Part shown: positions 18,257-35,630 of the stretch, one piece after another | Position numbering within the stretch: position 1 is the stretch's first letter | Layout of the letters: every line of letters starts with the position of its first letter | IMG/VR virus record: IMGVR_UViG_3300017747_002967 | Span: 1 to 41,650 of that record | Length of the DNA: 41,650 bases | Reading direction: 5' to 3' (one strand) | DNA from: a virus | Lineage: Duplodnaviria > Caudoviricetes | Position numbers and translations under genes: made by a program | The notes under the pieces: model-generated | What the model was told of the DNA's origin: nothing | The model's database searches: none | Seen by the model: the letters and a program-made list of their open reading frames with translations, nothing else

Positions 18257-18333
18257 GAGCGAGGCCCGCCTAGGAACAGGCCCCGCTCTGAGCCGTACAC
18301 CTCACAGGAGTGCACGACACATGCAGCAACGTA
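18257..18333 (-). ncRNA. putative cis-antisense two-hairpin RNA element (copy A)
   Basis: Same architecture as copies at 25299, 25922 and 35557; reverse -10 TACGTT at 18333-18328. Confidence 0.45.
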
Positions 18334-18362
18334 GACGCGTCACCCCAGGCCAGGCCAAATGA
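18321..18362 (+). CDS. 13-aa leader peptide MQQRRRVTPGQAK
   Basis: RBS AGGAG; stop overlaps ATG 18359/18362 of the next gene. Confidence 0.4.
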   Translation: MQQRRRVTPGQAK

Positions 18363-18808
18363 TGGGGCTCTCCGGGGCCGACATCGTCGTGGGCGCCACG
18401 GGCGTCTCTGCGGTGATCGCCGCCGGGTACCTGGTGCACAAAGCGATCAAGTCGATCCGGGCGTGGGGCGCGCAGACATGGGACCGGCTGGAACGCCTGT
18501 TCTCCCACGCGGTCGACAACTCAACCACCGGGCACCTCGTCAAGTACCACCTCGGCCCGAACGGGACGACCAGGCCGATGCATGAACGCGTCGGGTCGAT
18601 CGAGCAGGCGCAAGCGGACCACAACACGGTCGCCGCAGCGATCGGGGACAAGGTCGCCGAACACGACCGGCTCGGCACGACCCGCCACCAGGAGAACACC
18701 CGGAAGCTGATGGACATCTCCGCCCGGCTCGTCGCGGTCGAGCAAGCACAACGCATCGCGGCGACGGTCGCCGAAGACGCAGCACGACACCAAGGAGACA
18801 CACCATGA
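18359..18808 (+). CDS. membrane protein in lysis cassette
   Basis: N-terminal TM, LGPNG motif, coiled-coil tail. Confidence 0.65.
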   Translation: MMGLSGADIVVGATGVSAVIAAGYLVHKAIKSIRAWGAQTWDRLERLFSHAVDNSTTGHLVKYHLGPNGTTRPMHERVGSIEQAQADHNTVAAAIGDKVAEHDRLGTTRHQENTRKLMDISARLVAVEQAQRIAATVAEDAARHQGDTP

Positions 18809-18984
18809 AGATGCCATCGGAGCCGTTCCGGGCGTACCTGTACAACGTGGCGTTGGCGTTGCAGCCGATCGCTGTGATCTACGGGGCGACGTCGTCCGAC
18901 AAGGCGGCGTTGTGGATCGCTGCGCTGCCCGCTGTGCTCGGCCTCAGCCTCGCCCGGGCGAACACCACCACCAAGACCCAGTAG
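18805..18984 (+). CDS. holin (59 aa, absent from ORF track)
   Basis: RBS AAGGAG; MKMPSEPFRAYLYNVALALQPIAVIYG..ALWIAALPAVLGLSLARANT, two hydrophobic segments typical of actinophage holins. Confidence 0.7.
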   Translation: MKMPSEPFRAYLYNVALALQPIAVIYGATSSDKAALWIAALPAVLGLSLARANTTTKTQ

Positions 18985-19176
18985 ATGTCGCGCCGGAAAC
19001 GGTTAGCGGCGATCGAAGCGGAACAAGCGCGCGCCGCCGAAACAGCGCGCCTGTACGAACTGGTCGCCACGAAACGGCACACGGATCTGATGGCCGCAGT
19101 AGCGGCGGTGCACCGGGACGTGCGGTCGCTCCGCACGAAAGTCGACCGCGACTTCAAACCCACGAAGGGGACCTGA
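18985..19176 (+). CDS. hypothetical protein
   Basis: Fills the gap; TGATG coupling downstream. Confidence 0.5.
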   Translation: MSRRKRLAAIEAEQARAAETARLYELVATKRHTDLMAAVAAVHRDVRSLRTKVDRDFKPTKGT

Positions 19177-19655
19177 TGGCGACAAAGGTCGATGGCAGAC
19201 CAACGAAGATCGACGTGTGGGCAAACCCGTTGCTTGACGGCGAAGCGATACGGGTCGAAGGGTTCCCCTCGACGTACTTCGCAGGCGCGACCGTCACAGC
19301 GGTCGTGTCCGACCTCGCAGGTGTCGCGGCCGGGGCGGCGTGGACGGTCGACGTGGACGACACGATCGTCACCCTGACGCTCCCGCAGGCGTCCGTCGCA
19401 GCGATCGGCGAAGGGACCTTCACATGGACGGTTGTCGTGTCGACATCGGCCGGCGCGAAACCTCCGCTGATCGGCGGTGCGCTGTACATCCACAAGGGCC
19501 ACAAGCCGACGTGGCGTAGTTCGGCGTCGGGCGCCGTGTGCTTCGAGGGTTACGACCTGACGATCACCCAAATATTGGCGAACGCAGTCGACGTGATCGA
19601 CGGCGGCACCCCCGATGTGGAACCCGACCAAACACTCGATGGGGGCACCCCGTGA
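19176..19655 (+). CDS. virion protein, Ig/BppU-like with C-terminal DGGTP motifs
   Basis: Beta-rich sequence ending IDGGTP..LDGGTP. Confidence 0.6.
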   Translation: MATKVDGRPTKIDVWANPLLDGEAIRVEGFPSTYFAGATVTAVVSDLAGVAAGAAWTVDVDDTIVTLTLPQASVAAIGEGTFTWTVVVSTSAGAKPPLIGGALYIHKGHKPTWRSSASGAVCFEGYDLTITQILANAVDVIDGGTPDVEPDQTLDGGTP

Positions 19656-19768
19656 TCCGGATCCTGATCGTTCAGACACTTACCGAATCGGACGTGGTCG
19701 ACGGCGGCGTACCCGCCGGGGTCGGCGAAGGCATCGGTTCAGGCATCGTCGATGGAGGCACCCCGTGA
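19652..19768 (+). CDS. 38-aa DGG-motif peptide
   Basis: GTGA overlaps at both ends; VDGGVP..VDGGTP. Confidence 0.5.
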   Translation: MIRILIVQTLTESDVVDGGVPAGVGEGIGSGIVDGGTP

Positions 19769-20385
19769 CCGCACGCATCCTTGTCCGTGGCGGCACCGCA
19801 GCCGAGTGGACTTCCGCTAACCCGATCCTCGCTGCGCGTGAGCTCGGAGCGGAACGCGACACCGGGAAACTGAAAGTCGGCGACGGCGTCACTGCATGGA
19901 CGTCGCTCGCCTACTCCACCCCGACGTACACGGCGTTCACCGCGTCGCTGCTGGACGACACCACCGCAGCGGCGGCACGCACCACGCTCGGCCTCAGCAC
20001 ACTTGCCACAGCGACAACGCTCCCTGCGGAACTGTGCATAGCGGTCGGCGACGAAACGACTGCGATCACCGTCGGGACAGCGAAGGTCACGTTCCGGATG
20101 CCGTTCGCCATGACGGTCACCGCAGTACGGGCGTCGCTAACGACCGCTTCGTCGTCAGGTACCCCAACGGTTGACATCAACGAAGGCGCCGGCGCAGGTA
20201 CGTCGATCCTGTCGACGAAACTCACGATCGACGCGACCGAACTCACATCGACGACAGCGGCGACCGCCGCCGTGATCTCCGACGCGTCCCTCGCAGATGA
20301 TGCGCAGATCACGATCGACGTGGACGTCGCCGGCACGAACGCCGCCGGGTTGAAGGTGTGGCTGCTAGGAACACGGGCTGCCTGA
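19765..20385 (+). CDS. tail fibre adaptor 1 (Mtd_N/hyaluronidase N-terminal-like domain)
   Basis: [41 protein letters not shown]. Confidence 0.75.
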   Translation: MTARILVRGGTAAEWTSANPILAARELGAERDTGKLKVGDGVTAWTSLAYSTPTYTAFTASLLDDTTAAAARTTLGLSTLATATTLPAELCIAVGDETTAITVGTAKVTFRMPFAMTVTAVRASLTTASSSGTPTVDINEGAGAGTSILSTKLTIDATELTSTTAATAAVISDASLADDAQITIDVDVAGTNAAGLKVWLLGTRAA

Positions 20386-21650
20386 TGCCGATAATGGTCA
20401 TGCAGCCGGGGAGGTTCAGTCAGCTCCCAAACGCGAACCTGATCTCCCGGTACATAGCCGGGGTCGGGGTCACCTCGTCAGGTGGCCGGATCACACAGTG
20501 GAACGATCAGGTCGGCACGGCGCACATGACCGACAACGCGACCGGGTACGGTCCCGCAGAGTCCACGGATTGGCTCGGCAGGCCCGTTGTCCGCTACGAC
20601 GCGTCGCTGACGAACAAACCGCGAATGATGGCCGCAGGCCTATCGGGGTGGAACTCGAGGACCCGGTCGTTCGTGATCATCTCGCGCGATTCGTGGTTCA
20701 ACACGACCCACTACTACATCCGTCCCGCCGGGCTCGCCGGGGCGGCGCTGCATCTGTCCGGCACAGTGAACGAACCGCCGAACGTGCTCGTCAACGCGTC
20801 GGGTGGCACCCCGGCGATGCGTCCCGTTTCGTTGCCGCGCATCCAGATCGTCGCGTCGTCTGCGTCGTCGGTGGTCGTATCGAACGAGGAGACGTCCTCG
20901 ACGTTTACCGCGCTCCCCTCCGCGACGTACGACGGGTATCAGATCGGCGCGCAGTCCGACGGCAACTTCTCGATCTCCGGCGACATCTACGAAGTGCTTG
21001 TCTACGACACGACCACCCCCGACGTCACGGGGCTGCGAGGGTACGCGACGGGCCGGTACGGGATACCGACGAGGCGCACAAAAAATCTCGTGTTCGACGG
21101 CGACTCGATCACTCAAGGCACCGGTGTCATAACGGTCGACAACTATCCGTACCGGGTCCTCCGTGCCGGGTTCTCGTCTGATTGGCGGATGGCCGACGTA
21201 GGTCGCGGCGGGTTGAAAGTCGCGGACCTCGTCACCCACGGCGCGAAAACGGACGCGCACTACGACCCGTCGTGCACCCGGAACGTTCTCGTGTTGCTCA
21301 TCGGCCGGAACGACATCACCGACGGCACGGCAACCGCGACGATCTATTCGTCGATCGTGTCCCTGTTGCAGGCACGTGTCGCCGCCGGTTGGGAAGTGTG
21401 GGCGTGCACCCTCATCGACTCGTCGACCGCCGGCGCGTCAACAGCTATTCAGGCGCTGAACCAGATGCTGCGCGGCGTCACCGCTAACGGCGTCATAACC
21501 GACGCAGGCGTTGACCGGCTCATCGACTTCGGGGCGCAACCGAACCTGAACCCCGGTTCCGCGCCCGACCCGGCGTATTGGCAAGACGCCCTTCACCTCA
21601 ACGGCGCCGGCGCGCAGATCATGGCCGACCTCATCTACGCACAGTTCTAA
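20385..21650 (+). CDS. ConA-like domain + SGNH/GDSL esterase (receptor-binding/deacetylase)
   Basis: FDGDSIT (block I), GRGG (II), IGRND (III), DALH (V); N-terminal ITQWNDQ..GDIYEVLVY ConA-like domain. Confidence 0.82.
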   Translation: MPIMVMQPGRFSQLPNANLISRYIAGVGVTSSGGRITQWNDQVGTAHMTDNATGYGPAESTDWLGRPVVRYDASLTNKPRMMAAGLSGWNSRTRSFVIISRDSWFNTTHYYIRPAGLAGAALHLSGTVNEPPNVLVNASGGTPAMRPVSLPRIQIVASSASSVVVSNEETSSTFTALPSATYDGYQIGAQSDGNFSISGDIYEVLVYDTTTPDVTGLRGYATGRYGIPTRRTKNLVFDGDSITQGTGVITVDNYPYRVLRAGFSSDWRMADVGRGGLKVADLVTHGAKTDAHYDPSCTRNVLVLLIGRNDITDGTATATIYSSIVSLLQARVAAGWEVWACTLIDSSTAGASTAIQALNQMLRGVTANGVITDAGVDRLIDFGAQPNLNPGSAPDPAYWQDALHLNGAGAQIMADLIYAQF

Positions 21651-21662
21651 GGAAGGGACGGC

Positions 21663-22427
21663 ATGACCACAAGGATCTTGCTACGTGGCGGCACCGCCGC
21701 AGAGTGGACGTCGGAAAACCCGACGCTCCACGCACGCGAAGTGGGTGTCGAAACGGACACCGGTTACATCAAAGTCGGCGACGGTGTCACGGCGTGGACG
21801 TCGCTGTTGTACTCGACGGTCGCCGTTTCCGCGTTCATGAAAACGGTCCTCGACGACACGACCGCCGCCGCGGCGCGCACCACTCTCGGACTCGCGATCG
21901 GCACAGACGTTCAAGGGTACGACGTCGAGCTCGCTGCTTTGGCCGGGTTGACGTCCGCAGCGAACGCCGTCCCGTACTTCACCGGTTCCGGAACTGCAGC
22001 GGTTCTCACGCCCGCAGCGTCTTCGGTCGTCGGCCGCAAAGCATCCGGGGATCTCGCAGCGATGACCGGCGCCGAAACCGCTGCGGTGCTCGCCGGTGAG
22101 GTGTTCAAACAAACGCAGGAAGTCAACGCGCAAACCGGTACCACGTACACGCTTGTCGCCGGCGACGCCGGGAAACTCGTCACGTTGTCGAACGGGTCGG
22201 CGATCACGTTGACGTTGCCGCAAGACTCGGACGCGACCATCGCTATCGGCACGTACGTGGACCTGTTGCAGCTCGGCGCCGGTCAGGTCACCGTCGCCGC
22301 CGGTTCCGGGGCGACGCTCCGAACAGGCGGACTCACCGCGAAAGCCCGGGCGCAGTACTCGAGCCTCGGCGTCCAAAAGATCTCGGCGAACACTTGGCGT
22401 CTTTTTGGCGACCTAGCGACTTCGTGA
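21663..22427 (+). CDS. tail fibre adaptor 2 (Mtd_N-like domain)
   Basis: N-terminus paralogous to 19765; C-terminal [18 protein letters not shown] domain. Confidence 0.75.
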
Positions 22428-23089
22428 TGGGCCTCGGATCGCATTGCGTCGCGTCGGTCAACTCGGGGTTCAGTCCCCTGACCCTCAGCCCATACTTTTG
22501 GTACGACCTGTCGGACGCTGCGACGGTCACGACGTCGGGCGGGTTGATCACCCAGGTGAACGACAAGTCCGGCAACGCCCGGCACCTGATCGGCTCTGGC
22601 GGCTCGCGGCCTACGTATACGGCTGCGGGGTTGAACGGGTTGAACGTCGCCACGTTCGGGTCCGGTCATCAACTCTCGGTCACGCCGGGCACGATCACCA
22701 CGCAGCCGTACATGACGTTCGCCGTCGCGCAGTTCGACAACTCGGTGACCACCCAGTGCAACCTGTTCGGTATTGGCACCTACGTCTACACGTTGACGGG
22801 GACGTGGCGGTTCTACGCCGGGTCGGAGATCAACTCGGCGGTAACCGACGACGCGTTACCGCACGTGTTCTGCACCAAAGCCGCCGGTGCGTCCTCATAC
22901 CTGCGCCTGGACGGCAACCAGATCGCAGCTGGGAACGCCGGTATCACCAACTTCGGGCAGATCATCCTCGGGTCTGCGGCGTCGTCGTGGCGGGGCATCA
23001 TCTGCGAAGTGTTGTGTTGCCCTGACCCTGGGACAGGGCCACGGGACACGTACATCGCCGCCCTGAAAGCGAAGTGGGCGACCACCTAA
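22427..23089 (+). CDS. ConA/LamG-like receptor-binding protein
   Basis: FWYDLSD..QVNDKSGNARHL..GIICEV..YIAALKAKW. Confidence 0.7.
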   Translation: MGLGSHCVASVNSGFSPLTLSPYFWYDLSDAATVTTSGGLITQVNDKSGNARHLIGSGGSRPTYTAAGLNGLNVATFGSGHQLSVTPGTITTQPYMTFAVAQFDNSVTTQCNLFGIGTYVYTLTGTWRFYAGSEINSAVTDDALPHVFCTKAAGASSYLRLDGNQIAAGNAGITNFGQIILGSAASSWRGIICEVLCCPDPGTGPRDTYIAALKAKWATT

Positions 23090-23151
23090 GTTCTCCGCTG
23101 ACCCCCCTCCAGCGGATAGCACGCACCGTCCCCCCGCGGTGTTGTGCCGTA

Positions 23152-23186
23152 ACGCCGCCCGTCCTCTAACCCGGGGCGGGCGGCGT
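23152..23186 (+). terminator. hairpin ending the late operon
   Basis: ACGCCGCCCGTCC pairs with GGGCGGGCGGCGT. Confidence 0.6.
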
Positions 23187-23228
23187 CTGCGCGTCCGGGC
23201 GCATGTTCGTTTGTTGTGAAAGGAACTT

Positions 23229-23256
23229 CTCAAGGTTCGCGCAGCGCGCGCCGATA
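23229..23256 (+). promoter_or_regulatory. FliA/WhiG (sigma28)-like promoter
   Basis: CTCAAG-N15-GCCGATA; twin with identical spacing at 25845. Confidence 0.5.
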
Positions 23257-23335
23257 GGTGCAGGACAACCGAGAAGCGGCCGGGGTTTGAGTTACGAGCT
23301 CGCCCCCCGACCTAACCGACAGTGGAGTGAGCCAC

Positions 23336-24157
23336 ATGCCGATTTCGTCCGACCATAGTCGCGCGCTGCTGCGCGACCCGAACATCCCTACGGCTGACTT
23401 TGTCGTCTGGGCCGACCCTGCGCGCCCACGCACGAAGAAGCGGATCGCCACCGCGGCCGTCGGGGCGTTCGTCCTCGGTGTCGCCACGATGGCAGACGCC
23501 GCACCGGACGCCCCCCGGCTCGCGCCGCCTGGGTGCATCTTCCACACGGTGGTGCGCGGCGACACAGTTTGGCGGATTTCAGGCCAGGCGGGCATCACGC
23601 TCGACGTGGTCGCGCGCCTTAATCCCCAGATCCAGAATCTGAACGCCATCGAGGTAAACGACCAGATCGCGACGTCGTGCCCGACCAACGAGGTGCAGCG
23701 CGCGACGCTCGCCCCCGCAGTACACGTCGTGAACGTCGACAAGTACCTCGCCGAACGAGACGCACCGAACATCGCATCGAAGCGTGCGATCCTCGCCGCC
23801 CTTTGGAAGGCCGGGGCGCGCGGCGACCAGCTCATCACGCTCGCCGCGATCACCGAAGGCGAATCCGGGCGCAAGATCACCGCCATCGGCGACGTGGAGA
23901 TCCAGACCGGTGACTGGGGCCCGTCCGTTTCGGTGTTCCAAATCCGCACGCTGAAAAGCCAGACCGGGAAGGGCACGACGCGCGACATCAACCGGGCGTC
24001 CACCCTCGAAGGCGGCGCGCGCTCGGCCGTCGAACTGTGGAACCAGTCCGTCGAACGGGGCAAGCCAGGCGGCACCCCTTGGACCGCATGGTTGAAGGCG
24101 TGGCATACCCCACACATGGCGTCGTACGCCGCTGCGGCCGCGGAGATGGGGCTATGA
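23336..24157 (+). CDS. secreted LysM + lysozyme-like (transglycosylase) protein
   Basis: Hydrophobic signal/TM; LysM HTVVRGDTVWRIS..LNPQI; AITEGESG catalytic Glu, FQIR, PWTAW. Start at 23327 or 23336. Confidence 0.82.
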   Translation: MPISSDHSRALLRDPNIPTADFVVWADPARPRTKKRIATAAVGAFVLGVATMADAAPDAPRLAPPGCIFHTVVRGDTVWRISGQAGITLDVVARLNPQIQNLNAIEVNDQIATSCPTNEVQRATLAPAVHVVNVDKYLAERDAPNIASKRAILAALWKAGARGDQLITLAAITEGESGRKITAIGDVEIQTGDWGPSVSVFQIRTLKSQTGKGTTRDINRASTLEGGARSAVELWNQSVERGKPGGTPWTAWLKAWHTPHMASYAAAAAEMGL

Positions 24158-24417
24158 GTGCGACGTTGATCGCCTTGTTCCTCATCGGCATCGCGTCGGC
24201 GGTGTCGTACATCGTCGGCAAATCCGCCGGGGTCGCCGAATGCGAGAACGAACACACCATCGCCTTGCGGTTGGCTGCGCTTGCCCGTGAAGAGGAACGC
24301 CGCCAGGACCGCGCCGAGGTGCTGTCCGAAGCGCTCGGCCTGATGGGCCAGAAGTGGGCGCACCCCTCAAACCCGCAGTTCGTCATCGACCTCACGGAAG
24401 GGGACTCCGATGCATGA
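24154..24417 (+). CDS. membrane protein
   Basis: N-terminal TM; ATGA coupling. Confidence 0.55.
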   Translation: MSATLIALFLIGIASAVSYIVGKSAGVAECENEHTIALRLAALAREEERRQDRAEVLSEALGLMGQKWAHPSNPQFVIDLTEGDSDA

Positions 24418-24625
24418 GTGGGAGCGTGGAGATAGCCGGCGGCTCGAGCCGGTTGACCCTTCCGTGGCGCGCGACCGGGCTGAGCGGCTGTTCGAGCTCG
24501 ACCGACGCGGCCACCTTGTGTGGGCGACAGCGTGGATGTGCCCGCAGTACCGGTGCCCGAACTTCGGACGCGGCCTAACGCCCGGTATGTGCCCGGACCA
24601 TAACCTGAGGATGGTGCCGCGATGA
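24410..24625 (+). CDS. hypothetical Cys-containing protein
   Basis: RBS; coupled ORF. Confidence 0.5.
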   Translation: MHEWERGDSRRLEPVDPSVARDRAERLFELDRRGHLVWATAWMCPQYRCPNFGRGLTPGMCPDHNLRMVPR

Positions 24626-24861
24626 GTCGCGAGGACGACATCGCCAGGGCTCGCGCCGAGTACAAGGCTCGCCGCTACGGCCCCGACTGGTGCTGCCCGT
24701 ACGACTCGTGCGAGCGGATCGTGGAGGACATGGCGCACCCTGCGCCGCGGTGCCGGGATCATGGCGTGCCGATGTTGGAGATCAAACCGCCGACGAAGCG
24801 GGTGCTGATGAAGCACACGTTGTGGCCCGCGTTGACGTTCTACGCAGAGGTGCCGAAATGA
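24622..24861 (+). CDS. hypothetical Zn-ribbon-like protein
   Basis: WCCPYDSC..CRDH; ATGA coupling. Confidence 0.5.
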   Translation: MSREDDIARARAEYKARRYGPDWCCPYDSCERIVEDMAHPAPRCRDHGVPMLEIKPPTKRVLMKHTLWPALTFYAEVPK

Positions 24862-24928
24862 CGGCGTTCTGGGGTTTCGTCCTCGGCTGGTGTGCGTCGT
24901 CGTGGTTTTGGATGGGCTGGGTGAAGCG

Positions 24929-25246
24929 ATGACCCGGCTACTGACGTGGCTCAAACGCCTGCTGATCGCCGCCGCTGTTGTGCTGATCGGGTTCGTTGCG
25001 CTTGCGCCGAACAAGGACACGTACACCAGCAACGCCGACGCCCCGATGGTGACCCGGACGTTGGTGCCGCGGGAAACGACCACGACGCGCGCCACCCCGA
25101 CCACCGTCGCCCGCACGAGCTCGGCTGTGTCGATCGAGAAGGTGCTCGACGAGATCGTCGTGATCGACGGCGATCGGGTGTACCGGCTGCCTCGGTCGGC
25201 GTCCGTGATGCTCGCCCTGTACCTCGCCACCGCTGGAACCCGATGA
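24929..25246 (+). CDS. membrane-anchored Thr-rich protein
   Basis: N-terminal TM and Thr-rich linker; preceded by a 24-aa hydrophobic ORF (24858-24932). Confidence 0.55.
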   Translation: MTRLLTWLKRLLIAAAVVLIGFVALAPNKDTYTSNADAPMVTRTLVPRETTTTRATPTTVARTSSAVSIEKVLDEIVVIDGDRVYRLPRSASVMLALYLATAGTR

Positions 25247-25275
25247 AAGAGGGCCGAATGAGCTGCCGAGCGAGC

Positions 25276-25297
25276 TAAAATACGAACACATATTCGG
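25276..25297 (+). promoter_or_regulatory. -10 box with adjoining LexA (SOS)-like box
   Basis: TAAAAT then ACGAAC-ACAT-ATTCGG versus the actinobacterial consensus TCGAAC-N4-GTTCGA. Confidence 0.6.
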
Positions 25298-25298
25298 T

Positions 25299-25370
25299 GA
25301 GCCGGGCGCGCTGCTAACGCCCCGGCTCTGGACAACACCTGTCTGAGAGGTGCCGTCGTGGCGCACATTA
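25299..25370 (-). ncRNA. putative cis-antisense two-hairpin RNA element (copy B)
   Basis: GAGCCGGG/CCCGGCTC stem, bulged C, loop CTGCTAA; second hairpin over RBS with AA/CC mismatches; reverse -10 TAATGT. Confidence 0.55.
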
Positions 25371-25843
25371 CCCGTTCCTATTTGACCGATGCCCAGATCG
25401 AGCGGTTCCTACGCGATGTGAGCGTGGACGAATCCGGTTGCTGGCCCTGGCTTGGGTTCCGAAACGACGAGGGCTACGGCCACACGGTGTTCAGCGACAC
25501 CACGATCAAGATGGCCCATCGGGTCAGCTACCTGATCCACTACGGCGCCCTGGATCTCGATCTGACCATCGATCATCTGTGCTTCGTGACTTCGTGCGTG
25601 AACCCGGAACATCTTGACCTCGTGACGCGCGCCGAGAACACGCGGCGGCAGTTCCAACGGATCAAAGAGGAACGGCGCCCCCTCGTTGAGCGAGCCGCCT
25701 TGGCCTACGCCAGTGGCCTCAGCATCGATGACATCACCGCCCAGATGGGCGTCCCATACTCGACCATCCGGCGTTGGCTACGCGAGGCAGGTGCAGAGAT
25801 GCGACCTCGTGGCCGCTACGCCAGAAAGAATCTTGTGAAATGA
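25358..25843 (+). CDS. HNH endonuclease with C-terminal HTH
   Basis: GCWPW, AHRVSY, IDHLC..CVNPEHL..EN; GLSIDDITAQMGVPYSTIRRWL. Confidence 0.9.
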   Translation: MAHITRSYLTDAQIERFLRDVSVDESGCWPWLGFRNDEGYGHTVFSDTTIKMAHRVSYLIHYGALDLDLTIDHLCFVTSCVNPEHLDLVTRAENTRRQFQRIKEERRPLVERAALAYASGLSIDDITAQMGVPYSTIRRWLREAGAEMRPRGRYARKNLVK

Positions 25844-25844
25844 A

Positions 25845-25872: not shown

Positions 25873-25921
25873 ATGATTACATCAGGTCGGCGACCCTCGC
25901 CAACCGAACCCAAAACAAGGT

Positions 25922-25992
25922 GGGACCGGCGGCACGCCAATGCCCCGGTCCCTGACCGAAGCCCTCTGGAGGCTCCGATGTTCAAGAAGCTA
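25922..25992 (-). ncRNA. putative cis-antisense two-hairpin RNA element (copy C)
   Basis: GGGACCGG/CCGGTCCC stem, bulged C, loop CGCCAA; second hairpin over GGAGG; reverse -10 TAGCTT. Confidence 0.55.
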
Positions 25993-26622
25993 CTCACCGC
26001 AACCGTCCTCGTTCCAGCCGCAGTGCTGGTGCTCTCGACCGGCGCATCGGCCCACACGCCGAACGTGTCGCACTCCTGCACCGCCGCCGGCGCGACGTTG
26101 ACCGTTCACCTGACGCAGTACGAGCCCGGCTCCACCGTCACCGTGAACGGCGTCAAGTCTGTGTTCGGGACCGCCGACTACGACACCACCACCACCCTCG
26201 GTGACGGCACCAAGCCCGTCGAGTTCACCGTCGTGATCGACAACAAGGGCGACGGCAAGCACGACAAGTGGGACCAGACGATCATCGACACGACGGACGC
26301 CTGCGTCACGCCGCCGACGACCACCGCTCCGCCCAGCGACGACCTGACCCCGCAGACTCCGCCGAAGGTCGAGTACGTCAACCCCGCCTGGCCGATCTGC
26401 ATGGTCCCCGGGAAGCACCTGTACAACGCCCACGACCCCGAATGCGTCGACACCCCTGTGGTGATGGCCCCGCCCGCAGTCCTCGAACGTCAGCCCGCAC
26501 CGTCAACGCTCGCGTTCACCGGTGCCCAGTCGTGGCAGATGGCCCTCGCAGGCGTCCTCATCCTCGGCTCCGGGTTCGCCGCCATCCGCACCGGCAAGGC
26601 CATCAACAAGGCTAAGGCCTAG
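25978..26622 (+). CDS. secreted sortase-anchored surface protein (LAFTG)
   Basis: Sec signal ending ASA; beta domain; Pro/Thr linker; LAFTG + TM + basic tail. Confidence 0.85.
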   Translation: MFKKLLTATVLVPAAVLVLSTGASAHTPNVSHSCTAAGATLTVHLTQYEPGSTVTVNGVKSVFGTADYDTTTTLGDGTKPVEFTVVIDNKGDGKHDKWDQTIIDTTDACVTPPTTTAPPSDDLTPQTPPKVEYVNPAWPICMVPGKHLYNAHDPECVDTPVVMAPPAVLERQPAPSTLAFTGAQSWQMALAGVLILGSGFAAIRTGKAINKAKA

Positions 26623-28720: not shown

Positions 28721-29023
28721 TCACGCGGCCGCTGCCAATTCGATGATGCAACCACACTCCAGATTGACCTGCTCAGACCACCCGGAGGACCCCATCCAGG
28801 TGAGCAGTTCAGGCGTCTCCATGAAGAGTGCTGTCGGGGGGATTTTGTAATAAGCGACCAGCCGGTCGATGTCCTTGAGGCTCAGCGGGATCGACCCCTT
28901 GCGCTTCCCGTGCGCAGCCTGTCGCGAGCAGCCGAGGATGCCGGCGAGCTTGACGTCTGACGTGCGGGTGGTGTTCGCGAGGGTGCTGAGCGCTCCTGAT
29001 GTGAGGGTGAGTGTGTCTGCCAT
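28721..29023 (-). CDS. immunity repressor (XRE-like HTH) with ssrA-like C-terminus
   Basis: SDVKLAGILGCSRQAAHGKRKG HTH; ends ELAAAA; divergent from cro-like gene. Confidence 0.75.
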   Translation of the reverse strand: MADTLTLTSGALSTLANTTRTSDVKLAGILGCSRQAAHGKRKGSIPLSLKDIDRLVAYYKIPPTALFMETPELLTWMGSSGWSEQVNLECGCIIELAAAA

Positions 29024-29027
29024 AGGT

Positions 29028-29061
29028 GGACATTCTGGACACATCGGGACACATCGGTCAA
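29028..29061 (-). promoter_or_regulatory. leaderless repressor promoter with tandem repeats
   Basis: TTGACC-N18-CAGAAT, ATG 8 nt downstream; GGACACATCG x2 (29037-29056) fills the spacer. Confidence 0.6.
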
Positions 29062-29131
29062 GACGACAGGGCCATTGGGCCACTTTCGTCACGCGTTGTG
29101 CAAGTGTTGAGGTCAGTTCGTCAACTGGTAC

Positions 29132-29160
29132 TTGACATCATGGGTCGAACGATGCACCCT
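29132..29160 (+). promoter_or_regulatory. early rightward promoter (leaderless)
   Basis: TTGACA-N17-CACCCT, ATG 29168 7 nt downstream. Confidence 0.6.
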
Positions 29161-29167
29161 GAAACCC

Positions 29168-29401
29168 ATGCAACCACCAGAACACTCGTACGTAGATGGT
29201 GAAACGGAGCCATACGAACTGAGCCCGAACCAGGCGGCGAGGTTCCTATACCACAGAGTTCCGGTCACACCGCGGACCATCCGACGCTGGGCGGAGCAAG
29301 GACTGCTCCCTTCGTACAACGGACCGGGCAACCGCCGCCGGTTCCGCCGCTCGGATCTCGACAAGTTCATCGACGCTCGCATCGAAGCGGGGCAGTCGTG
29401 A
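29168..29401 (+). CDS. Cro/excisionase-like MerR-type HTH
   Basis: LSPNQAA..VTPRTIRRWAEQGLLP..GNRRRFRRSDL. Confidence 0.82.
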   Translation: MQPPEHSYVDGETEPYELSPNQAARFLYHRVPVTPRTIRRWAEQGLLPSYNGPGNRRRFRRSDLDKFIDARIEAGQS

Positions 29402-29865
29402 ACAACCTCGAACGGTTCATCGCTCGCATCCCAACCCTTGACCCGGCGAAGTGCTGGCCGTACCCCGGAGCGCAACGCCCCAACGGGTACCGCAACGCCA
29501 ACTACCAGGGCAAGCCGACCACCGGCCACCGAGCAGTGTGGCTAGCCACCGGTCGCACGATCCCCGCAGGGTTTGACCTCGACCACCTGTGCCGCAACCG
29601 GGCGTGCTGCAACCCTGCGCACATCGAGCCCGTCACGCGATCGGAGAACCTGCGGCGCGGTGTGTGCGCTCGGTTGTGCCAGTGCGATGCATGCGTCGCC
29701 AAGCGCGACCGCCCCGACCGGGCTGCACGCTTCGCCGCTGCGGCCGCCGGCGCGTGTCCCGTTCCTCATGGACACAACGGGTACAGCAACTACGGCTGCC
29801 GTTGCGACGTCTGCCGCTTGGGCAAGTCGACCTATGAGCGCACCCGCAAGGCGGTGTCGGCATGA
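29398..29865 (+). CDS. HNH endonuclease with C-terminal Cys-rich domain
   Basis: CWP, GHRAVW, LDHLCRNRACCNPAH..EN; HG..GY..GCRCDVC. Confidence 0.88.
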   Translation: MNNLERFIARIPTLDPAKCWPYPGAQRPNGYRNANYQGKPTTGHRAVWLATGRTIPAGFDLDHLCRNRACCNPAHIEPVTRSENLRRGVCARLCQCDACVAKRDRPDRAARFAAAAAGACPVPHGHNGYSNYGCRCDVCRLGKSTYERTRKAVSA

Positions 29866-29932
29866 ACGTTGTCGCGTTCCTCGTCTTCGCCGCGGTCGTG
29901 CTCGGTGGGTTCTCCCGATGGGGGTGCCAGCG

Positions 29933-30235
29933 ATGACACGCGAAGAAGCAGAAGCAGCAGCGAACCGGCTGCGGATGTTGTACGCCGAGGTCGGCTACAG
30001 CGGCGATGCCGTCAGTGTTTGGGGTGTTGCTGACGACTGGCACTTTGGTTCCGATGCCCGGGTGCCGCTATCGGTTCGGTGGACCGCAGCGCTGTTGTTG
30101 AACGCCTCCTACAACCTTGCGTGCTGGCCTTGCGCTGAGAAGCACGGCAAGGTCCAGAAAGCGAACCGCTCGAACCTTGGCTGCGAGCACGATCCGTGGC
30201 TGTCTGAGCGTCCCCGTTTGGAGCGTGTCCGGTGA
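29933..30235 (+). CDS. hypothetical protein
   Basis: Coupled ORF; preceded by a 24-aa hydrophobic ORF (29862-29936). Confidence 0.5.
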   Translation: MTREEAEAAANRLRMLYAEVGYSGDAVSVWGVADDWHFGSDARVPLSVRWTAALLLNASYNLACWPCAEKHGKVQKANRSNLGCEHDPWLSERPRLERVR

Positions 30236-30525
30236 AGGCCCGGGCGTCCGATCCGGTGTCGTCTCACCTGGCGGCGACAGCAGTGAAACCAGGAGCCGGA
30301 GTCCTTGAGGCGATGATCGTGGCTGCGGTGTGGCGGCGCACGAAGACCGCTGAGCAGATCGCGTCGCACCTGGACAAGGTGTGCCCGGGCCGGTGGCATG
30401 AGGGCACTGTGCGGACTGCCGTGTCGCGCGTGGCTGAGGACGGCCGGATCGTCGTCGTTGGCGAAGGCCGAACCAGTCGTGGCCGTGTGGCGCGGCTGTA
30501 CCGAGCAACGGGGGAAGAACAGTGA
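30232..30525 (+). CDS. winged-HTH DNA-binding protein
   Basis: ARASDPVSSHLAA N-terminus; TAEQIA..GTVRTAVSR; TSRGR wing. Confidence 0.65.
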   Translation: MKARASDPVSSHLAATAVKPGAGVLEAMIVAAVWRRTKTAEQIASHLDKVCPGRWHEGTVRTAVSRVAEDGRIVVVGEGRTSRGRVARLYRATGEEQ

Positions 30526-30788
30526 AGGGCTACACGATCGAGCGTTATCGGTCATGGGCGCCGCTTCCGGGTGGCGATCCGTGGGCGCGGTTCGTGGCGA
30601 CCTGGCGTTACGGGGTCATTGCTCCGGGCGGCAAGCCCATCGCTCGTGGTTGCACGTGGCGTTCGGCGCGGAAGATCGCCGACGCACTCAACGGCATCCA
30701 GTTCCAGCAGTTGTTGCTCGCCCGGCTCGAAACCGAGTTGAAGCTGTACGAGGCCCGCGCACTCAACGCCCAACAGGTGAAGCCATGA
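30522..30788 (+). CDS. hypothetical protein
   Basis: Coupled ORF. Confidence 0.5.
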   Translation: MKGYTIERYRSWAPLPGGDPWARFVATWRYGVIAPGGKPIARGCTWRSARKIADALNGIQFQQLLLARLETELKLYEARALNAQQVKP

Positions 30789-31252
30789 GCCGCAAGGGCT
30801 GGGCGTTCATGAAGCGCTTCGTCGTCCCGCACTTCGACTCCGATGACGACTACCTGCGGCGGTTGCGGATCGTCGAGACGCCACTGTTCGGCCTGTACCT
30901 GCACCGGATCGGTACGCCGGACTCGCGGCCGACGCTGCACGATCACCCGTGGAACTTCACGGCGTTCGTGTTGCGCGGCGGCTACACCGAACGTCGCCTA
31001 GATCCGAAGACGATGCGGGTCTGTGCGCGTCGGGTGCGGCACGTCAATCGGATGCGGACGCACGACTTCCACGCCATCACCGAACTGCTGCGGGTGCCGA
31101 CCTGGACGCTTGTGTTCGTCGGTCGTCGCGCTCGCACGTGGGGGTACCTCGAAGAGATCGGCTGGCCGAATCAACACTGGATGTGGACGGCCTTCGACCA
31201 GCACCCCCACAACGACGAGTTCGTGGCTGCACTTCAACGGCGTGCGTCGTGA
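30785..31252 (+). CDS. cupin-fold protein
   Basis: LYLHRI..LHDHPWNF..LRGGYTE..FHAI..WTLVFVG. Confidence 0.72.
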   Translation: MSRKGWAFMKRFVVPHFDSDDDYLRRLRIVETPLFGLYLHRIGTPDSRPTLHDHPWNFTAFVLRGGYTERRLDPKTMRVCARRVRHVNRMRTHDFHAITELLRVPTWTLVFVGRRARTWGYLEEIGWPNQHWMWTAFDQHPHNDEFVAALQRRAS

Positions 31253-31434
31253 GTGTCGTGAAGACGGTCCTCATGGTGATCGGTGCGGGGTGTGTCGGGT
31301 TGATGGCCGGGCTGCTCGCGTTCATGGCGTGGGTGGAGTGTGCGACGCGACGCAACTTCCGCCGGCGCGACCTCCCCATCAAGAACGACGACACCGTGCT
31401 TCGCGTGGAGCGTTCGACGTGGGACCGGCGATGA
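31249..31434 (+). CDS. small membrane protein
   Basis: N-terminal TM; GTGA coupling. Confidence 0.5.
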   Translation: MSVVKTVLMVIGAGCVGLMAGLLAFMAWVECATRRNFRRRDLPIKNDDTVLRVERSTWDRR

Positions 31435-31682
31435 CCGTCCACCGTGTGTGGCTGTACCGGCATTCGCGAGCGTTGGTGCACGTCGAAGCCGCCAGCGAAC
31501 AAGAAGCCCGCCAGATCGCTGCGCACGTCGTGGAGGAATCCGCGTGGACCGCGTCGCGGGTCGTCACTGACGTGCAACAGACCCGGAAGGGCTGGCCCAC
31601 CGAAAGGTACTGGACCGGCCCGCCCGACACCGGCCGATGGGTCTACCCAGAGACAGAACTGTTCGACGAAGGGGAGAAGTGA
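31431..31682 (+). CDS. hypothetical protein
   Basis: VEAASEQEARQIA motif; coupled. Confidence 0.55.
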   Translation: MTVHRVWLYRHSRALVHVEAASEQEARQIAAHVVEESAWTASRVVTDVQQTRKGWPTERYWTGPPDTGRWVYPETELFDEGEK

Positions 31683-31900
31683 TGAAGGTGCCTGACGTTC
31701 TGCAACAGGCCGGCGATCACCTGAACGACGCGCAGGCGGCGTGGATGATGATGCGCGTCGCCGCGCTGGTCGATGACGAGGTGTCGGTGCGGCAGTTCTC
31801 CGCTGAGGCCGAAGCCGCAGCGAACCATGCCCGGTCGTTGTTCGACGAGTTCCTGACGTTCGGTGACGTCCCATCCGACGCGACCGTTGAGGGGTTCTGA
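31682..31900 (+). CDS. hypothetical protein
   Basis: RBS GGAG; coupled. Confidence 0.5.
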   Translation: MKVPDVLQQAGDHLNDAQAAWMMMRVAALVDDEVSVRQFSAEAEAAANHARSLFDEFLTFGDVPSDATVEGF

Positions 31901-31902
31901 CC

Positions 31903-32115
31903 ATGAGCGACGAGCAGAAGCTGACCGCTAGGCAAGCGGCGATCATCGGAGCGTTCACAGGCGTCCTGTGCGGGCCGTTCGCTGATCTTCACGAGTACGT
32001 CGATGGCCTGCCGGGCTTCAGCGGCATCGGGACGCTCGGGATTGCGTTCCATGCCGACCAGATCAAGGAAGCGGCGCGCGCTGACTTCCTCGCTATCGCA
32101 GCGGAGCGTGCCTGA
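31903..32115 (+). CDS. hypothetical protein
   Basis: AIIGAFTGVLCGPFADLHEY conserved-phage-like pattern. Confidence 0.6.
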   Translation: MSDEQKLTARQAAIIGAFTGVLCGPFADLHEYVDGLPGFSGIGTLGIAFHADQIKEAARADFLAIAAERA

Positions 32116-32555
32116 TGTTCGATGATCTGATCGAGTTGGCGTTGGCGGAAGACCCGATGCTCGACGAGCTCGACCGTGAGGACGTCGCCGAGTTGTATGT
32201 CCGTGCGGTCGAGATGCGCGACATCGCAGCGAACGCCGTCCGGAAACTGGGCGAGCACATCGGTACCCGGTTCGACACGCCGGTCACGCTCGCGAACGGG
32301 TGGGTGCTGCAACCGTCGGTCGACGTGCGACGTACGGGGTGGCGGAAGTCGGATCTGATCGACCACGTGAAGGACACCCTGTCGGTGATCCTCGTGAACC
32401 GCGAAGGCGAACAGGTGCCTGTGCTGCCGGATGCGGTGGTGCGTGACTTGTTCGAGCCGGCGACGGGGCGGACGAAGAACTGGCGGGCGCGCGGCATCAA
32501 CCCGGACGACTGGTGCGACGTCACCAAGATCCCCAGCGTTCGGGTGGTGAAGTAG
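32115..32555 (+). CDS. hypothetical protein
   Basis: TGATG coupling; directly upstream of erf. Confidence 0.6.
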   Translation: MFDDLIELALAEDPMLDELDREDVAELYVRAVEMRDIAANAVRKLGEHIGTRFDTPVTLANGWVLQPSVDVRRTGWRKSDLIDHVKDTLSVILVNREGEQVPVLPDAVVRDLFEPATGRTKNWRARGINPDDWCDVTKIPSVRVVK

Positions 32556-33148
32556 TGGACGAGTTGGTGACGGCACTCGCGAAGGCGCAGTCGGAGTTCC
32601 CGGCGATCGTGAAGTCGCACTCGGCGAAGGTCAAGATGAAGGCGGGCGGCGAGTACAGCTACACGTACGCCAACCTCGCCGACACGCTCGCTGCTGTGGT
32701 GCCTGTGTTGACGGCGAACGGGATCGCGTTGCTGCAACCGATCCAGACGACCGCTACCGGTGTCGAGATTGGCACAGTGCTGTTGGGGCACGGCGATCGG
32801 ATCGCATCGTCGATGCCGCTCGACATCGCACGCCTCGCGCCGCAGGAAATCGGGTCGCTGATCTCGTACTACCGCCGATATCTGTTGACGAGCCTTCTGG
32901 CGCTCGCTGTGGACGACGACGACGGGAAGGCGGCTACCACCGCCCGACGCAAGCCGGCGCCTCGTGCTGCGGCTCCTGTGACCTTGGCCGAGGACCACAA
33001 GCAGGCGTTCCGTGACTGGTTCGACGGGCTCCCCGATGAGGTGCAGGCCGAACGGAAACCGGCGTTCAAGGCAGCGTTCGGGAAGCTCGACGACGTCCCG
33101 GCCGACAAGTGGCCCGACGTCGAAGCGTTCATGGCTGGTGCGTCTTGA
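32555..33148 (+). CDS. erf: ERF-family ssDNA annealing protein
   Basis: ALAKAQ, YSYTYANL, QEIGSLISYYRRY, DDDG. Confidence 0.88.
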   Translation: MDELVTALAKAQSEFPAIVKSHSAKVKMKAGGEYSYTYANLADTLAAVVPVLTANGIALLQPIQTTATGVEIGTVLLGHGDRIASSMPLDIARLAPQEIGSLISYYRRYLLTSLLALAVDDDDGKAATTARRKPAPRAAAPVTLAEDHKQAFRDWFDGLPDEVQAERKPAFKAAFGKLDDVPADKWPDVEAFMAGAS

Positions 33149-33648
33149 CTGCCGTACCGGCCGACCGGAAGGTGGGCGAAGTACTCCCCCGGCAAGTGAC
33201 TCCAAGGTTGAAGGCTCCGAAGCCGGCGAAGAAGGCCGCGAAGCGGTTGAAGCCGAAGCGGGCAACGACCACGGCGGCGTTGAAGCGGCAGGCGTTGACG
33301 AAGTGGGGCGCGGTCATCCACCTCAAGTACGACGCCTGCCAGTTCTGCGGGCGCCGCGACGGGAAGCTCGACGCTCATCACATCGTCGACCGGGGATACG
33401 CCGCAACGTTCGCTGATTCGACGAACGGAGTGCTGCTGTGCGCTACCCACCACACCCTCGGGTTGCAGTCCGTTCACCGGGACTCGCAGTTCGCGGTGAA
33501 CCTGTACTCGCTGGTGCTCGGCGTGGAGGGTTACGCGGCGTTGAACGCGAAGGCGTACGCCGGGGTGCGAGCGAACCGGGCGTTCTGGGAGGGCGAGATC
33601 GCCAAGCTGGACGCCGAGCTCGTCGAGTTGGGGCTGCGGCATGTCTGA
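33145..33648 (+). CDS. NinG-like/HNH-fold nuclease
   Basis: CQFCG, LDAHHIVDRG, NGVLLC..HH. Confidence 0.7.
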   Translation: MTAVPADRKVGEVLPRQVTPRLKAPKPAKKAAKRLKPKRATTTAALKRQALTKWGAVIHLKYDACQFCGRRDGKLDAHHIVDRGYAATFADSTNGVLLCATHHTLGLQSVHRDSQFAVNLYSLVLGVEGYAALNAKAYAGVRANRAFWEGEIAKLDAELVELGLRHV

Positions 33649-34414
33649 GCTCACCGTGGGCTCACTGTTCAGCGGCATCGGCGGGCTCGATTTGGGGCTC
33701 GAGCGTGCCGGTATGCGTGTCATCTGGAACGCCGAAGTGGACCCGTACTGCTGCCGGGTGTTGAAGAAGCACTGGCCTGACGTCCCGAACTTGGGTGATG
33801 TCACTGCGATTGATTGGACGACCGTTGAACGACCCGACGTCATCTGCGGCGGATACCCGTGCCAGCCGTTCAGCTACGCCGGCGCTCGAGCAGGAGCGGA
33901 CGACGCCCGGCACCTCTGGCCGCACATGCTCAACGCCGTTCGCGTTCTACGACCCCGATACGCGATCTTGGAGAACGTCGCAGGCCACCTTTCTCTCGGG
34001 TTTGGACGAGTACTCGGGGACCTGGCCGAGATCGGGTTCGACGCGGAATGGGACTGCATCCCAGCGGCAGCCGTCGGCGCCCCGCACCTCCGTGACCGCG
34101 TCTTCGTTGTTGCATACCCCAACAGCGAAAGCGAACCAGTCGGCACCGTCGATGGCGCACCGCGACCGAGGGTCATGGTTCCCGACGCCGACTGCGGCGG
34201 ACGGGATGGGCGGGCCGGGGAACTCTGGCCGAGGGGGTGGCCTAAACCTGCGGACCGTCGTCGCCGAGGAGACGCCTGGCCCGCTATCGCCGACCTTCGT
34301 CGAGTGGCTGATGGGGTTCCCTCTCGGATGGACCGACTTAGAGGACTCGGCAACGCCGTCGTCCCTGCCGTAGCCGAACACGTTGGACGACTCATCACGA
34401 AGGGTTCGATATGA
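33641..34414 (+). CDS. DNA (cytosine-5) methyltransferase, large polypeptide
   Basis: Motif I SLFSGIGG, IV GGYPCQPFS, VI ENV, VIII HLRDRVF, X LGNAVV; motif IX is absent in this frame. Confidence 0.92.
   Translation: MSELTVGSLFSGIGGLDLGLERAGMRVIWNAEVDPYCCRVLKKHWPDVPNLGDVTAIDWTTVERPDVICGGYPCQPFSYAGARAGADDARHLWPHMLNAVRVLRPRYAILENVAGHLSLGFGRVLGDLAEIGFDAEWDCIPAAAVGAPHLRDRVFVVAYPNSESEPVGTVDGAPRPRVMVPDADCGGRDGRAGELWPRGWPKPADRRRRGDAWPAIADLRRVADGVPSRMDRLRGLGNAVVPAVAEHVGRLITKGSI
33795..34373 (+). CDS. nested alternative-frame ORF, putative small subunit of the methyltransferase
   Basis: 192-aa ORF wholly inside the MTase; TPTA repeats and motif IX-like LSPTFVEWLMGFPLGWT. Confidence 0.7.
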   Translation: MMSLRLIGRPLNDPTSSAADTRASRSATPALEQERTTPGTSGRTCSTPFAFYDPDTRSWRTSQATFLSGLDEYSGTWPRSGSTRNGTASQRQPSAPRTSVTASSLLHTPTAKANQSAPSMAHRDRGSWFPTPTAADGMGGPGNSGRGGGLNLRTVVAEETPGPLSPTFVEWLMGFPLGWTDLEDSATPSSLP

Positions 34415-34755
34415 CCAGCCCAAAGACGCGCACCCGCCTGGTTTGGCGTGGCGGCAAGAAGGTCTGCGAACACCGTTGGCTGATGGAACAGCATCTCGGC
34501 CGCGCGCTGCTGGCTACAGAGCACGTACACCACCGGGACGGGAATCCGCTCAACAACGAGCTGTCGAACCTTGAGGTGTTGAACGCACGAGAGCACATGC
34601 TCCTGCACAAGGTGCGCGATCTCGAACCGAAGCCGTGTGCGAACTGCGGGCAACTCTTCACCGGCCAAGGCAAGCATCGTCATCGCCAGATGTGCTGCAC
34701 GTCTGCGTGTGCACAAGCCATGCGTGTCCGGGCTTCAAGCGAGGCGCGGCGATGA
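34411..34755 (+). CDS. HNH endonuclease
   Basis: EHRWLME..LGR.L..EHVHHRDGNPLNN..NL; CANCG Zn finger. Confidence 0.88.
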   Translation: MTSPKTRTRLVWRGGKKVCEHRWLMEQHLGRALLATEHVHHRDGNPLNNELSNLEVLNAREHMLLHKVRDLEPKPCANCGQLFTGQGKHRHRQMCCTSACAQAMRVRASSEARR

Positions 34756-34808
34756 ACGTAGTGCCTCAGGTAGCGGAGCACGTCGGCCGGCTGGTCGTGA
34801 ACCGATGA
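34752..34808 (+). pseudogene. relic copy of methyltransferase C-terminus
   Basis: Reads MNVVPQVAEHVGRLVVNR*, versus VVPAVAEHVGRLIT at the MTase end. Confidence 0.75.
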
Positions 34809-34966
34809 ACGACGCGCCGTTGATCACGCCGTACGAGCTGCGCCGGGAAGCGTCCGTTGCGATGGAAACGGACGTGTACCTCGCGGGTGTGCTCCGCCGT
34901 GCAGCCCGCGCGCTCGAGTTCAAAGACGCACAACTAGCAGCCACAGAACACCAGGAGGAAGCGTGA
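34805..34966 (+). CDS. hypothetical protein
   Basis: ATGA coupling to the relic; ends with RBS for whiB. Confidence 0.5.
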   Translation: MNDAPLITPYELRREASVAMETDVYLAGVLRRAARALEFKDAQLAATEHQEEA

Positions 34967-35619
34967 GCCCGCAGAAAGGCCAGTTGAACGCGGCGAGCTA
35001 CTACATGACGCAGACACCGCGTGTCACTGCGTGGGCTGCGCCGGGTCGTGGGACACGCGAGCACGGTTCGCCGCGCGCCGAGACGCTGACTCTGTGGGAG
35101 CACGCTGCGTGCCGCGGCCAGGGGAACGAGTACGGGAATGTGTGGATGTACCCAGGGCAGCACGACCCGGAGGTGGTGCGCGACGCAGTGAAGTTGTGTG
35201 CGTCGTGCCCGGTGCGTGACCTCTGTGCTGCTGACGCTCGACGTGAAGCGCCAGCGGTCGGTATCCGCGCCGGCCGCGTGTACGGCCAGACCCCGGACAA
35301 CGACGGGCGCGCGTCGAGGACGTGTGTGATCTGTGGGGATGTGTTCAAGGGTTACGGTCCGGCGAAGTCGTGTTCGTCGGCGTGCCGGGTCGCGTTGAAC
35401 ACGCACCGGGACCGGGTGAACGCCGCAGCGAAACGCGCGGAGCGGGCACGCATCAAAGAGTTGGCACGGAACGGTCCCGACCCGGCAGAGGTGTGGGGTA
35501 CACAACCACTACAGACAGACGTTCGATCAGCGGATACACTGATAGGACATACAAGTGATCCCGGCGCCGCTGGTAACGGCCCGGGATCTGACCGGAAGCC
35601 GCTTGGAGGCCCCCGATGA
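34963..35619 (+). CDS. whiB: WhiB-family regulator with C-terminal Zn finger
   Basis: WEHAAC..KLCASCPVRDLC..GIRAG; then CVICG..SCSSAC. Confidence 0.8.
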   Translation: MSPQKGQLNAASYYMTQTPRVTAWAAPGRGTREHGSPRAETLTLWEHAACRGQGNEYGNVWMYPGQHDPEVVRDAVKLCASCPVRDLCAADARREAPAVGIRAGRVYGQTPDNDGRASRTCVICGDVFKGYGPAKSCSSACRVALNTHRDRVNAAAKRAERARIKELARNGPDPAEVWGTQPLQTDVRSADTLIGHTSDPGAAGNGPGSDRKPLGGPR

Positions 35620-35630
35620 AGAGCACCGTA
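35557..35630 (-). ncRNA. putative cis-antisense two-hairpin RNA element (copy D)
   Basis: GATCCCGG/CCGGGATC stem, bulged C, loop CTGGTAA; second hairpin over GGAGG with AA/CC mismatches; reverse -10 TACGGT. Confidence 0.55.

Follow-up and report, generated by a model that had tools for sequence, protein, structure and literature searches.

A family of probable Sar-type cis-antisense RNAs over gene starts in an actinobacterial-type phage and in the mobile elements of Actinomycetota

Introduction

To our knowledge, the known cases of antisense control over phage and transposon genes are a few single systems in enterobacteria. We describe here a short two-hairpin element that recurs at gene starts in the IMG/VR virus record IMGVR_UViG_3300017747_002967 (Caudoviricetes), and which we read as a likely cis-antisense RNA. 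The whole record, 41,650 nt at 65% GC, was analysed and is referred to as the window. Its open reading frames (ORFs) include terminase, portal, capsid, tail, lysis, Erf, methylase, WhiB and replication-initiator genes, a content that looks, from sequence, as in actinobacterial siphoviruses. No integrase was found among the 92 window ORFs scanned, and no close DNA relative of the window was found among cultured phages.

Results

A reading of the window from its sequence alone had proposed four copies of the element, at 18257-18333 (copy A), 25299-25370 (B), 25922-25992 (C) and 35557-35630 (D), each with two hairpins and a -10 box on the minus strand. All four are present at these positions. The minimum free energy fold of the minus strand of each copy consists of two clean hairpins, and the boxes TACGTT, TAATGT, TAGCTT and TACGGT were all recovered; on that strand each copy has a TANNNT box separated by 7 nt from a purine at the foot of hairpin 1. 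Against dinucleotide shuffles, the fold z-scores of copies A to D are -4.95, -5.93, -4.79 and -4.47 on the minus strand and -1.08, -2.70, -3.35 and -2.45 on the plus strand. There are 151 matches in the window to a Shine-Dalgarno (SD) sequence followed by a start codon, and the seven that have a reverse box just behind the start all come from the four copy starts. A pattern derived from copies C and D had 2 matches in the window, with 0.00 expected from 100 shuffles.

Copy A is predicted from its fold to specify a minus-strand antisense RNA of ~70 nt with two hairpins (18250..18320), and scores 44.1 bits on our model R2, of which it is a training member; its reverse -10 box TACGTT lies at 18328..18333 (minus strand). 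The ATG at 18321 opens only a 13-codon leader ORF (18321..18362, plus strand), whose TGA overlaps the next ATG, an arrangement that predicts translational coupling. The ORF that follows (18359..18808, plus strand; 149 aa) belongs to the lysis region, lies upstream of the holin gene at 18805-18984 and overlaps it; it has no Pfam match, DUF2746 being a lead only. A short leader beside a long ORF was also seen in 4 of the 138 other listed members of the family described below.

Copies B and C lie close together. The predicted antisense RNA of copy B (25292..25357, minus strand) is called from its fold and from a weak PtaRNA1 match considered below, with the reverse box TAATGT at 25365..25370 (minus strand). 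Its target, identified by ORF scan, is an HNH endonuclease with a helix-turn-helix (25358..25843, plus strand), and a candidate sense -10 box, TAAAAT, lies upstream at 25276..25281 (plus strand), in keeping with the enrichment of such boxes in the family. For copy C, the fold predicts an antisense RNA at 25915..25979 and the box TAGCTT lies at 25987..25992 (both minus strand). The target here is a 214-aa protein (25978..26622, plus strand) with a signal-peptide-like N-terminus and a hydrophobic C-terminus, as read from its sequence; it matches no family, and no relatives of it were found in viral contigs.

Copy D (predicted antisense RNA 35550..35617 from the fold; reverse box TACGGT 35625..35630; both minus strand) lies inside the 3' end of a WhiB-like ORF (34963-35619), which reads through the element and whose stop overlaps the ATG at 35616. 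A candidate sense -10 box, TACACT, precedes it at 35535..35540 (plus strand). Behind it is a 122-aa phage hypothetical protein (35616..35984, plus strand), whose stop overlaps the ATG of the replication initiator at 35984-36841; no element was found in the replication-initiator relatives L004-L007. Read-through of the element by a preceding ORF was also observed in 3 of 87 other listed members.

A degenerate fifth copy had been suggested at about 23277-23357. We place the possible element at 23271..23344 (minus strand) and its TATGGT at 23352-23357; the LysM/SLT gene that it precedes starts at ATG 23336. It has the box and the 7-nt spacing, a z-score of -3.4, and is the best non-training match of R2 in the window; that score is weak (14.9 bits, E 0.036), and the family loop is missing. 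Whether it is a true member is, in our judgement, about evenly balanced.

The element extends far beyond this phage. A first pattern, covering part of the motif, matched 58 viral loci, five of which (four distinct) were complete: they also had the 5' arm, the start codon and the box, none of which had been used in selection. A second pattern matched 20 viral loci, at least 120 metagenome loci and at least 120 genome loci, the metagenome and genome collections holding an estimated ~780 and ~440 raw pattern-holding stretches, respectively. Of the distinct matches listed, 91 of 132 and 51 of 119 qualified as members by their stems. We dropped L199 and L287, two false passes of the stem filter without a start or hairpin-1 context, along with truncated matches, duplicates (among them L077, identical to L075) and L347 (genome G039), which is counted only in the genome tally given below. 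At least 138 distinct members remained among the matches listed.

These members share far more than the pattern used to find them. The reverse TANNNT box is present in 129 of 137 listed members, compared with 0/136, 2/135, 0/135 and 0/135 in control windows of the same ORFs, and with 1/41 and 0/68 in pattern matches that lack the stem. It falls in all three frames relative to the start codon (60/15/8) and lies 6-8 nt from hairpin 1 in 83 of 84 cases. A start codon stands behind the SD in 134 of 137 listed members (21 of 107 in the comparison), and a sense TANNNT lies 20-45 nt upstream in 109 of 137 (4 of 109 in the comparison). The sequence-only reading had taken the A:C mismatches of the stems for G:U wobbles of the minus strand, and the family bears this out: a strand-neutral count of hairpin 1 wobbles gave 265 A.C against 34 G.T, pointing to the antisense strand, and in hairpin 2 the count was 23 against 0 in favour of the minus strand. 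The minus strand is also the more stable one in all 138 listed members. Both-side changes occur in 19 of 22 pairs, including all 10 pairs of hairpin 1, and 97.6% are paired compared with 40-52% in slid controls (94 model-aligned sequences); since the sequences are related to one another and were aligned to fit the structure, this covariation count overstates independence. Covariation and strand bias are both found in the members.

The loop of hairpin 2 is largely conserved across members, even when left free in the pattern. The idea that this loop occurs freely in either orientation was rejected: leaving it open in the pattern yielded no new full member, and each of the 12 loci that passed, among 26, retained A-R-C. 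A pattern made from hairpin 2 only returned mostly chance matches, with one clear member among 13. In hairpin 1, the anti-SD is mostly held within the stem (pattern '(((.' in 111 of 138), and would therefore be limited in pairing with other mRNAs. Separately, TANNNT boxes on the opposite strand peak a second time in members, 60-75 nt upstream of hairpin 2, which suggests divergent promoters adjoining many elements.

Of the 50 named genome members, 49 carry an Actinomycetota label, most of them in Acidimicrobiia and Thermoleophilia; the other is labelled Chloroflexota. In a sample of 151 genomes of the Amycolatopsis class, at least 14 held an R2 match when 31 candidates were scored in each; R2 also matched plasmids of Iamia, Kitasatospora, Streptomyces and Corynebacterium. 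Among listed members, 55 of the 105 downstream ORFs scanned had a Pfam match: 32 to HTH_17, 10 to HNH or endonuclease VII, four to tyrosine and two to serine recombinases, four to ArdC, two to PD-(D/E)XK and one to a small terminase. The HTH_17-type genes appear excisionase-like by sequence. Three members precede DDE transposases, a GIY-YIG gene is also among the targets, and one plasmid member (38.8 bits) precedes a KilAC antirepressor gene. The 130 downstream proteins of listed members fall into at least 44 families, and the reverse box is found in 40 of the 44. The largest target family comprises 25 proteins (L101, L103, L111 and 22 others) of ~300 aa, with weak tyrosine-recombinase matches only. 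Variants in Actinomycetes (L345, L348, L356, L358, L360 and L361, five of them in genome G114) precede small Arg/Pro-rich ORFs, which had no Pfam match where scanned.

Cultured phages carry the element as well, namely LilSpotty, Maddy2, Malisha and MargaretKali. Malisha has two copies, both ahead of endonucleases; the MargaretKali element (L372:1481-1557) is close to the end of the genome, and no gene is annotated after it. The Gordonia phages Malisha and Squiddly carry ~740 nt beyond what 23 listed records of relatives (17 phage names) contain. In an alignment with Holliday, the one empty site compared, this insert holds a sense TATGAT, the element and a gene for endonuclease VII. The element was thus co-inserted with an endonuclease gene in these two phages. 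Between them the element is identical while the ORFs behind it have diverged; the TANNNT box is kept in both, with different inner bases. Two weaker observations each come from a single contig related to this phage: one contig (depth 9) joins across copy B and its HNH gene, and in another the inner stem and the loop of copy C differ from those in the window.

Comparison with known antisense RNAs

The sequence-only reading had recognised no named RNA family, and indeed no Rfam family reaches its cut-off on the copies. The element is uncatalogued; its layout and hairpin-2 loop motif have a precedent in the Sar RNA of phage P22 (RF00262), with an echo in PtaRNA1. Like the RNA predicted for the family, P22 Sar is a cis-antisense RNA of ~70 nt that is transcribed from within the first codons of its target (in Sar, TATACT lies 6 nt before +1); in the P22 record sar ends one base before the ant start and the promoter lies inside ant. 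Both have a 5' hairpin with the anti-SD, and the loop of the 3' terminator hairpin of sar, GUUACCGC, matches the family hairpin-2 loop. The predicted fold of the family has the sar-type layout, with two hairpins, the 5' one bearing the anti-SD and the 3' one a GUUNNNGC-type loop, and in sequence the putative antisense -10 lies within the first codons of the target, with a predicted +1 near the start codon. Unlike P22 Sar, the family has a GC-rich bulged hairpin 2, a stronger hairpin 1 and actinobacterial hosts, and it faces 44 target families outside an arc-ant operon, whereas P22 Sar has the ant antirepressor as its single target. The sar model (gathering cut-off 43 bits) gave no match in the window at E<=10 and none at E<=5 in 40 member-bearing loci.

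PtaRNA1 (RF01811) is a 72-position two-hairpin antisense model. It provided the only relevant Rfam match, to copy B at 23.5 bits against a cut-off of 47, and one more (L073) in the 40 member-bearing loci. PtaRNA1-like elements resemble the family in being predicted two-hairpin RNAs antisense to the SD and start of a neighbouring gene, and the gammaproteobacterial matches below the cut-off also have an upstream TANNNT and a start codon at the hairpin base. R2 found no match at the PtaRNA1-like sites of 8 loci, and PtaRNA1 above its cut-off was absent from 5 + 151 genomes. In PMC3013711 PtaRNA1 is called a 'putative RNA antitoxin', and Rfam files it so, whereas the family targets are mostly DNA-processing genes; PtaRNA1 is also mentioned in PMC3300014. 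One gammaproteobacterial genome (G193) has four sub-cut-off PtaRNA1-like elements (L363, L367, L368 and L369) ahead of short ORFs, with TAAACT upstream. RNAs of the PtaRNA1 type may therefore be broader than the Rfam cut-off shows.

A case from Mycobacterium mucogenicum bears on expression. The accessible part of PMC6582537 describes, in a prophage, a low-homology Rfam 'Sar' on the opposite strand beside a signal-peptide gene, weak and detected by northern blot, and presents it there as a single Rfam match of unknown function, without a family, promoter or target rule. The northern probe given in its supplement (Table S1) occurs once in the viral collection, in L421, and is absent from 401 sampled genomes. 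The element under the probe has TAAGAT followed by 7 nt, two hairpins, the loop GUUGCCGC and a signal-peptide target; it scores 39.3 bits on sar, below the cut-off of 43, and 22.3 on R2, on the same strand. That northern probably shows expression of a distant family member and so gives indirect support, L421 being tied to the strain by the probe match only.

The folds of IS10 RNA-OUT and IS200 art200 differ from that of the family. Each of these RNAs is tied to one insertion sequence (IS), and no Rfam match of theirs was found on the copies; according to PMC4513863 they are cis-antisense over the transposase ribosome-binding site (RBS) and block 30S binding. FinP and sar antisense RNAs are treated in PMC5415839. 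The SAS/ESAS of Cluster K, as given in PMC3203893, are likewise repeated start-associated elements in actinophages. They have a fixed 13-bp sequence with 17-bp inverted repeats, whereas in the family the sequence varies, pairing is kept and the reverse -10 is conserved. Membership was rejected, the 13-bp repeat being absent from the four copies as read against its consensus, with no formal search.

Discussion

We consider it probable that the four elements encode an uncatalogued, actinobacterial Sar-type cis-antisense RNA, likely blocking translation of the adjacent gene. This reading draws on the motif, its strand bias, the covariation, the fixed reverse TANNNT box, the gene associations and the Gordonia co-insertion, all evident from sequence comparison. 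The earlier proposal of ~60-70-nt antisense RNAs over the RBS (~65-70 nt by our estimate), with a -10 in the first codons, thereby gains strong comparative support from 138 other members. Several points weigh on the other side. Promoter use, RNA ends, pairing and repression are, for this phage and the core members, inferred. Copy D sits in a coding frame, copies A and C have no sense TANNNT within 50 nt upstream, and three other HNH genes of the window carry no element; this last point also tempers the suggestion that the targets are dose-sensitive, which the gene list of the family otherwise fits. Members are related and pattern-selected, so that the counts are not independent events, and the selection tilts the sample towards one subfamily. 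Conservation of a -35 was not seen among members, termination signals, with the U-tract behind hairpin 2, are weak, and YUNR is not clearly enriched (73/138). L421 is only a weak R2 match, and another stretch of the same locus scored 20.1 bits. Finally, R2 scores neither P22 sar nor PtaRNA1-like matches and the sar model scores nothing in the window; common ancestry is therefore unproven, and the family would be Sar-like in working but is not a member of RF00262.

Three other explanations deserve consideration. The element could be a sense-strand leader whose mRNA hairpin hides the SD, the antisense signal being incidental. Ten of 13 scanned viral members precede HNH, endonuclease VII or GIY-YIG genes, a weak sense hairpin overlaps the SD in members (mean -7.8 kcal/mol), and the T4 homing-endonuclease genes I-TevI, segB and mobE have RBS-sequestering hairpins (PMC2988022). 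Yet the wobbles favour the minus strand (265:34 and 23:0), and a reverse TANNNT at fixed spacing, independent of frame, would be left unexplained. We thus hold this reading to be very unlikely, and rejected a T4-type hairpin since the minus-strand fold and wobble bias place the functional fold off the mRNA strand; a sense hairpin may nevertheless act as a second layer, by analogy with IS200 (PMC4513863). Transcriptional interference with a convergent sense promoter, hairpin 2 serving only to terminate and the RNA being dispensable, would suit the convergent sense box of 109 of 137 listed members, with promoters less than ~100 nt apart. Such interference needs neither a conserved, covarying 5' hairpin, in which all 10 pairs show both-side changes, nor a conserved loop common with Sar, and seems to us very unlikely.

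The element might also be a folded single-stranded DNA site for recombination or protein binding, marking gene cassettes as attC does. A conserved extrahelical base, the co-insertion with an endonuclease gene and the relative contig joining across copy B and its HNH gene would all agree with such a site. The boundary of the Gordonia insert, however, lies ~40 nt upstream of the hairpin, and the SD, start codon (134/137) and promoter spacing are signals of transcription and translation. Model R1 gave exactly one match per locus in 67 of 96 loci (~3 kb each), therefore no arrays, and an integron attC cassette was rejected for want of tandem arrays. We regard this alternative as highly improbable.

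The preferred reading, a cis-antisense RNA, implies a simple mechanism. The host housekeeping sigma factor would start the RNA 6-8 nt past the -10 box hidden in the first codons. Hairpin 1 would carry a variable loop with the anti-SD mostly tucked in its stem. The stem of hairpin 2 is bulged and rich in GC, and its loop, GYU-NNN-RC, is conserved; this hairpin would also end the transcript. Bulges near loops help strand invasion in other antisense systems. Contacts between loops would seed a full duplex over the leader, SD and start codon, so blocking 30S binding, and a convergent sense promoter ~25 nt upstream, in most members and at copies B and D, would give the pair the arrangement of pIN/pOUT in IS10. 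Levels of nucleases, recombinases and excisionase-like proteins would thereby be kept low, their expression being confined to the time before the RNA accumulates after entry, or to strong read-through that outruns it. In silico, cognate RNA/leader pairs reach -86 to -107 kcal/mol and non-cognate pairs -12 or less, except C/D at about -21. The suggestion that the loops encode non-cross-reacting specificities is only partly supported: cognate pairs are far stronger, but the loop of hairpin 2 is largely conserved, and C and D cross-pair. As the hairpin-2 loop is conserved even when left free, specificity probably resides in hairpin 1 and the stems.

A wider, tentative proposal, which we put forward as less than an even prospect, is that actinobacterial mobile DNA uses the element as a plug-in 'gene-start lock'. 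Some 110 nt, spanning the sense promoter, the antisense RNA, the SD and the first codons, would move as one self-sufficient module onto unrelated nuclease, recombinase, anti-restriction and phage genes, each of which would be expressed in a short burst on entry to a naive cell and then be silenced. Sar, PtaRNA1 and this family might be branches of a single superfamily across phyla, the conserved GYU-NNN-RC loop being recognised through a common pairing geometry or by a host factor, and one phage would run several near-orthogonal copies in parallel.

The family is not described in the literature searched, PMC3765725 included, although supplementary and non-Rfam motif catalogues may hold a description. 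The class of mechanism is already known; the breadth and portability appear to be new, with one RNA design at hundreds of sites in phages, plasmids, IS elements and integrative elements of Actinomycetota, ahead of at least 44 protein families. It could explain in general terms how actinophages tolerate excisionase-like genes and homing endonucleases that stand free. The cultured phages Malisha, Squiddly and LilSpotty make the design open to direct test, and it suggests compact translational switches for actinobacterial genetics.

Other features of the window

Elsewhere in the window, a block of glycosyltransferase and methyltransferase genes (5626-9832) lies between the capsid and head-tail adaptor genes and possibly has a role in virion glycosylation. 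At 19615-22427, an SGNH/GDSL hydrolase is flanked by two tail/receptor-binding genes with Mtd_N domains, and the ORF at 30398-31252 matches a PHROG labelled cysteine dioxygenase (E 1e-27).

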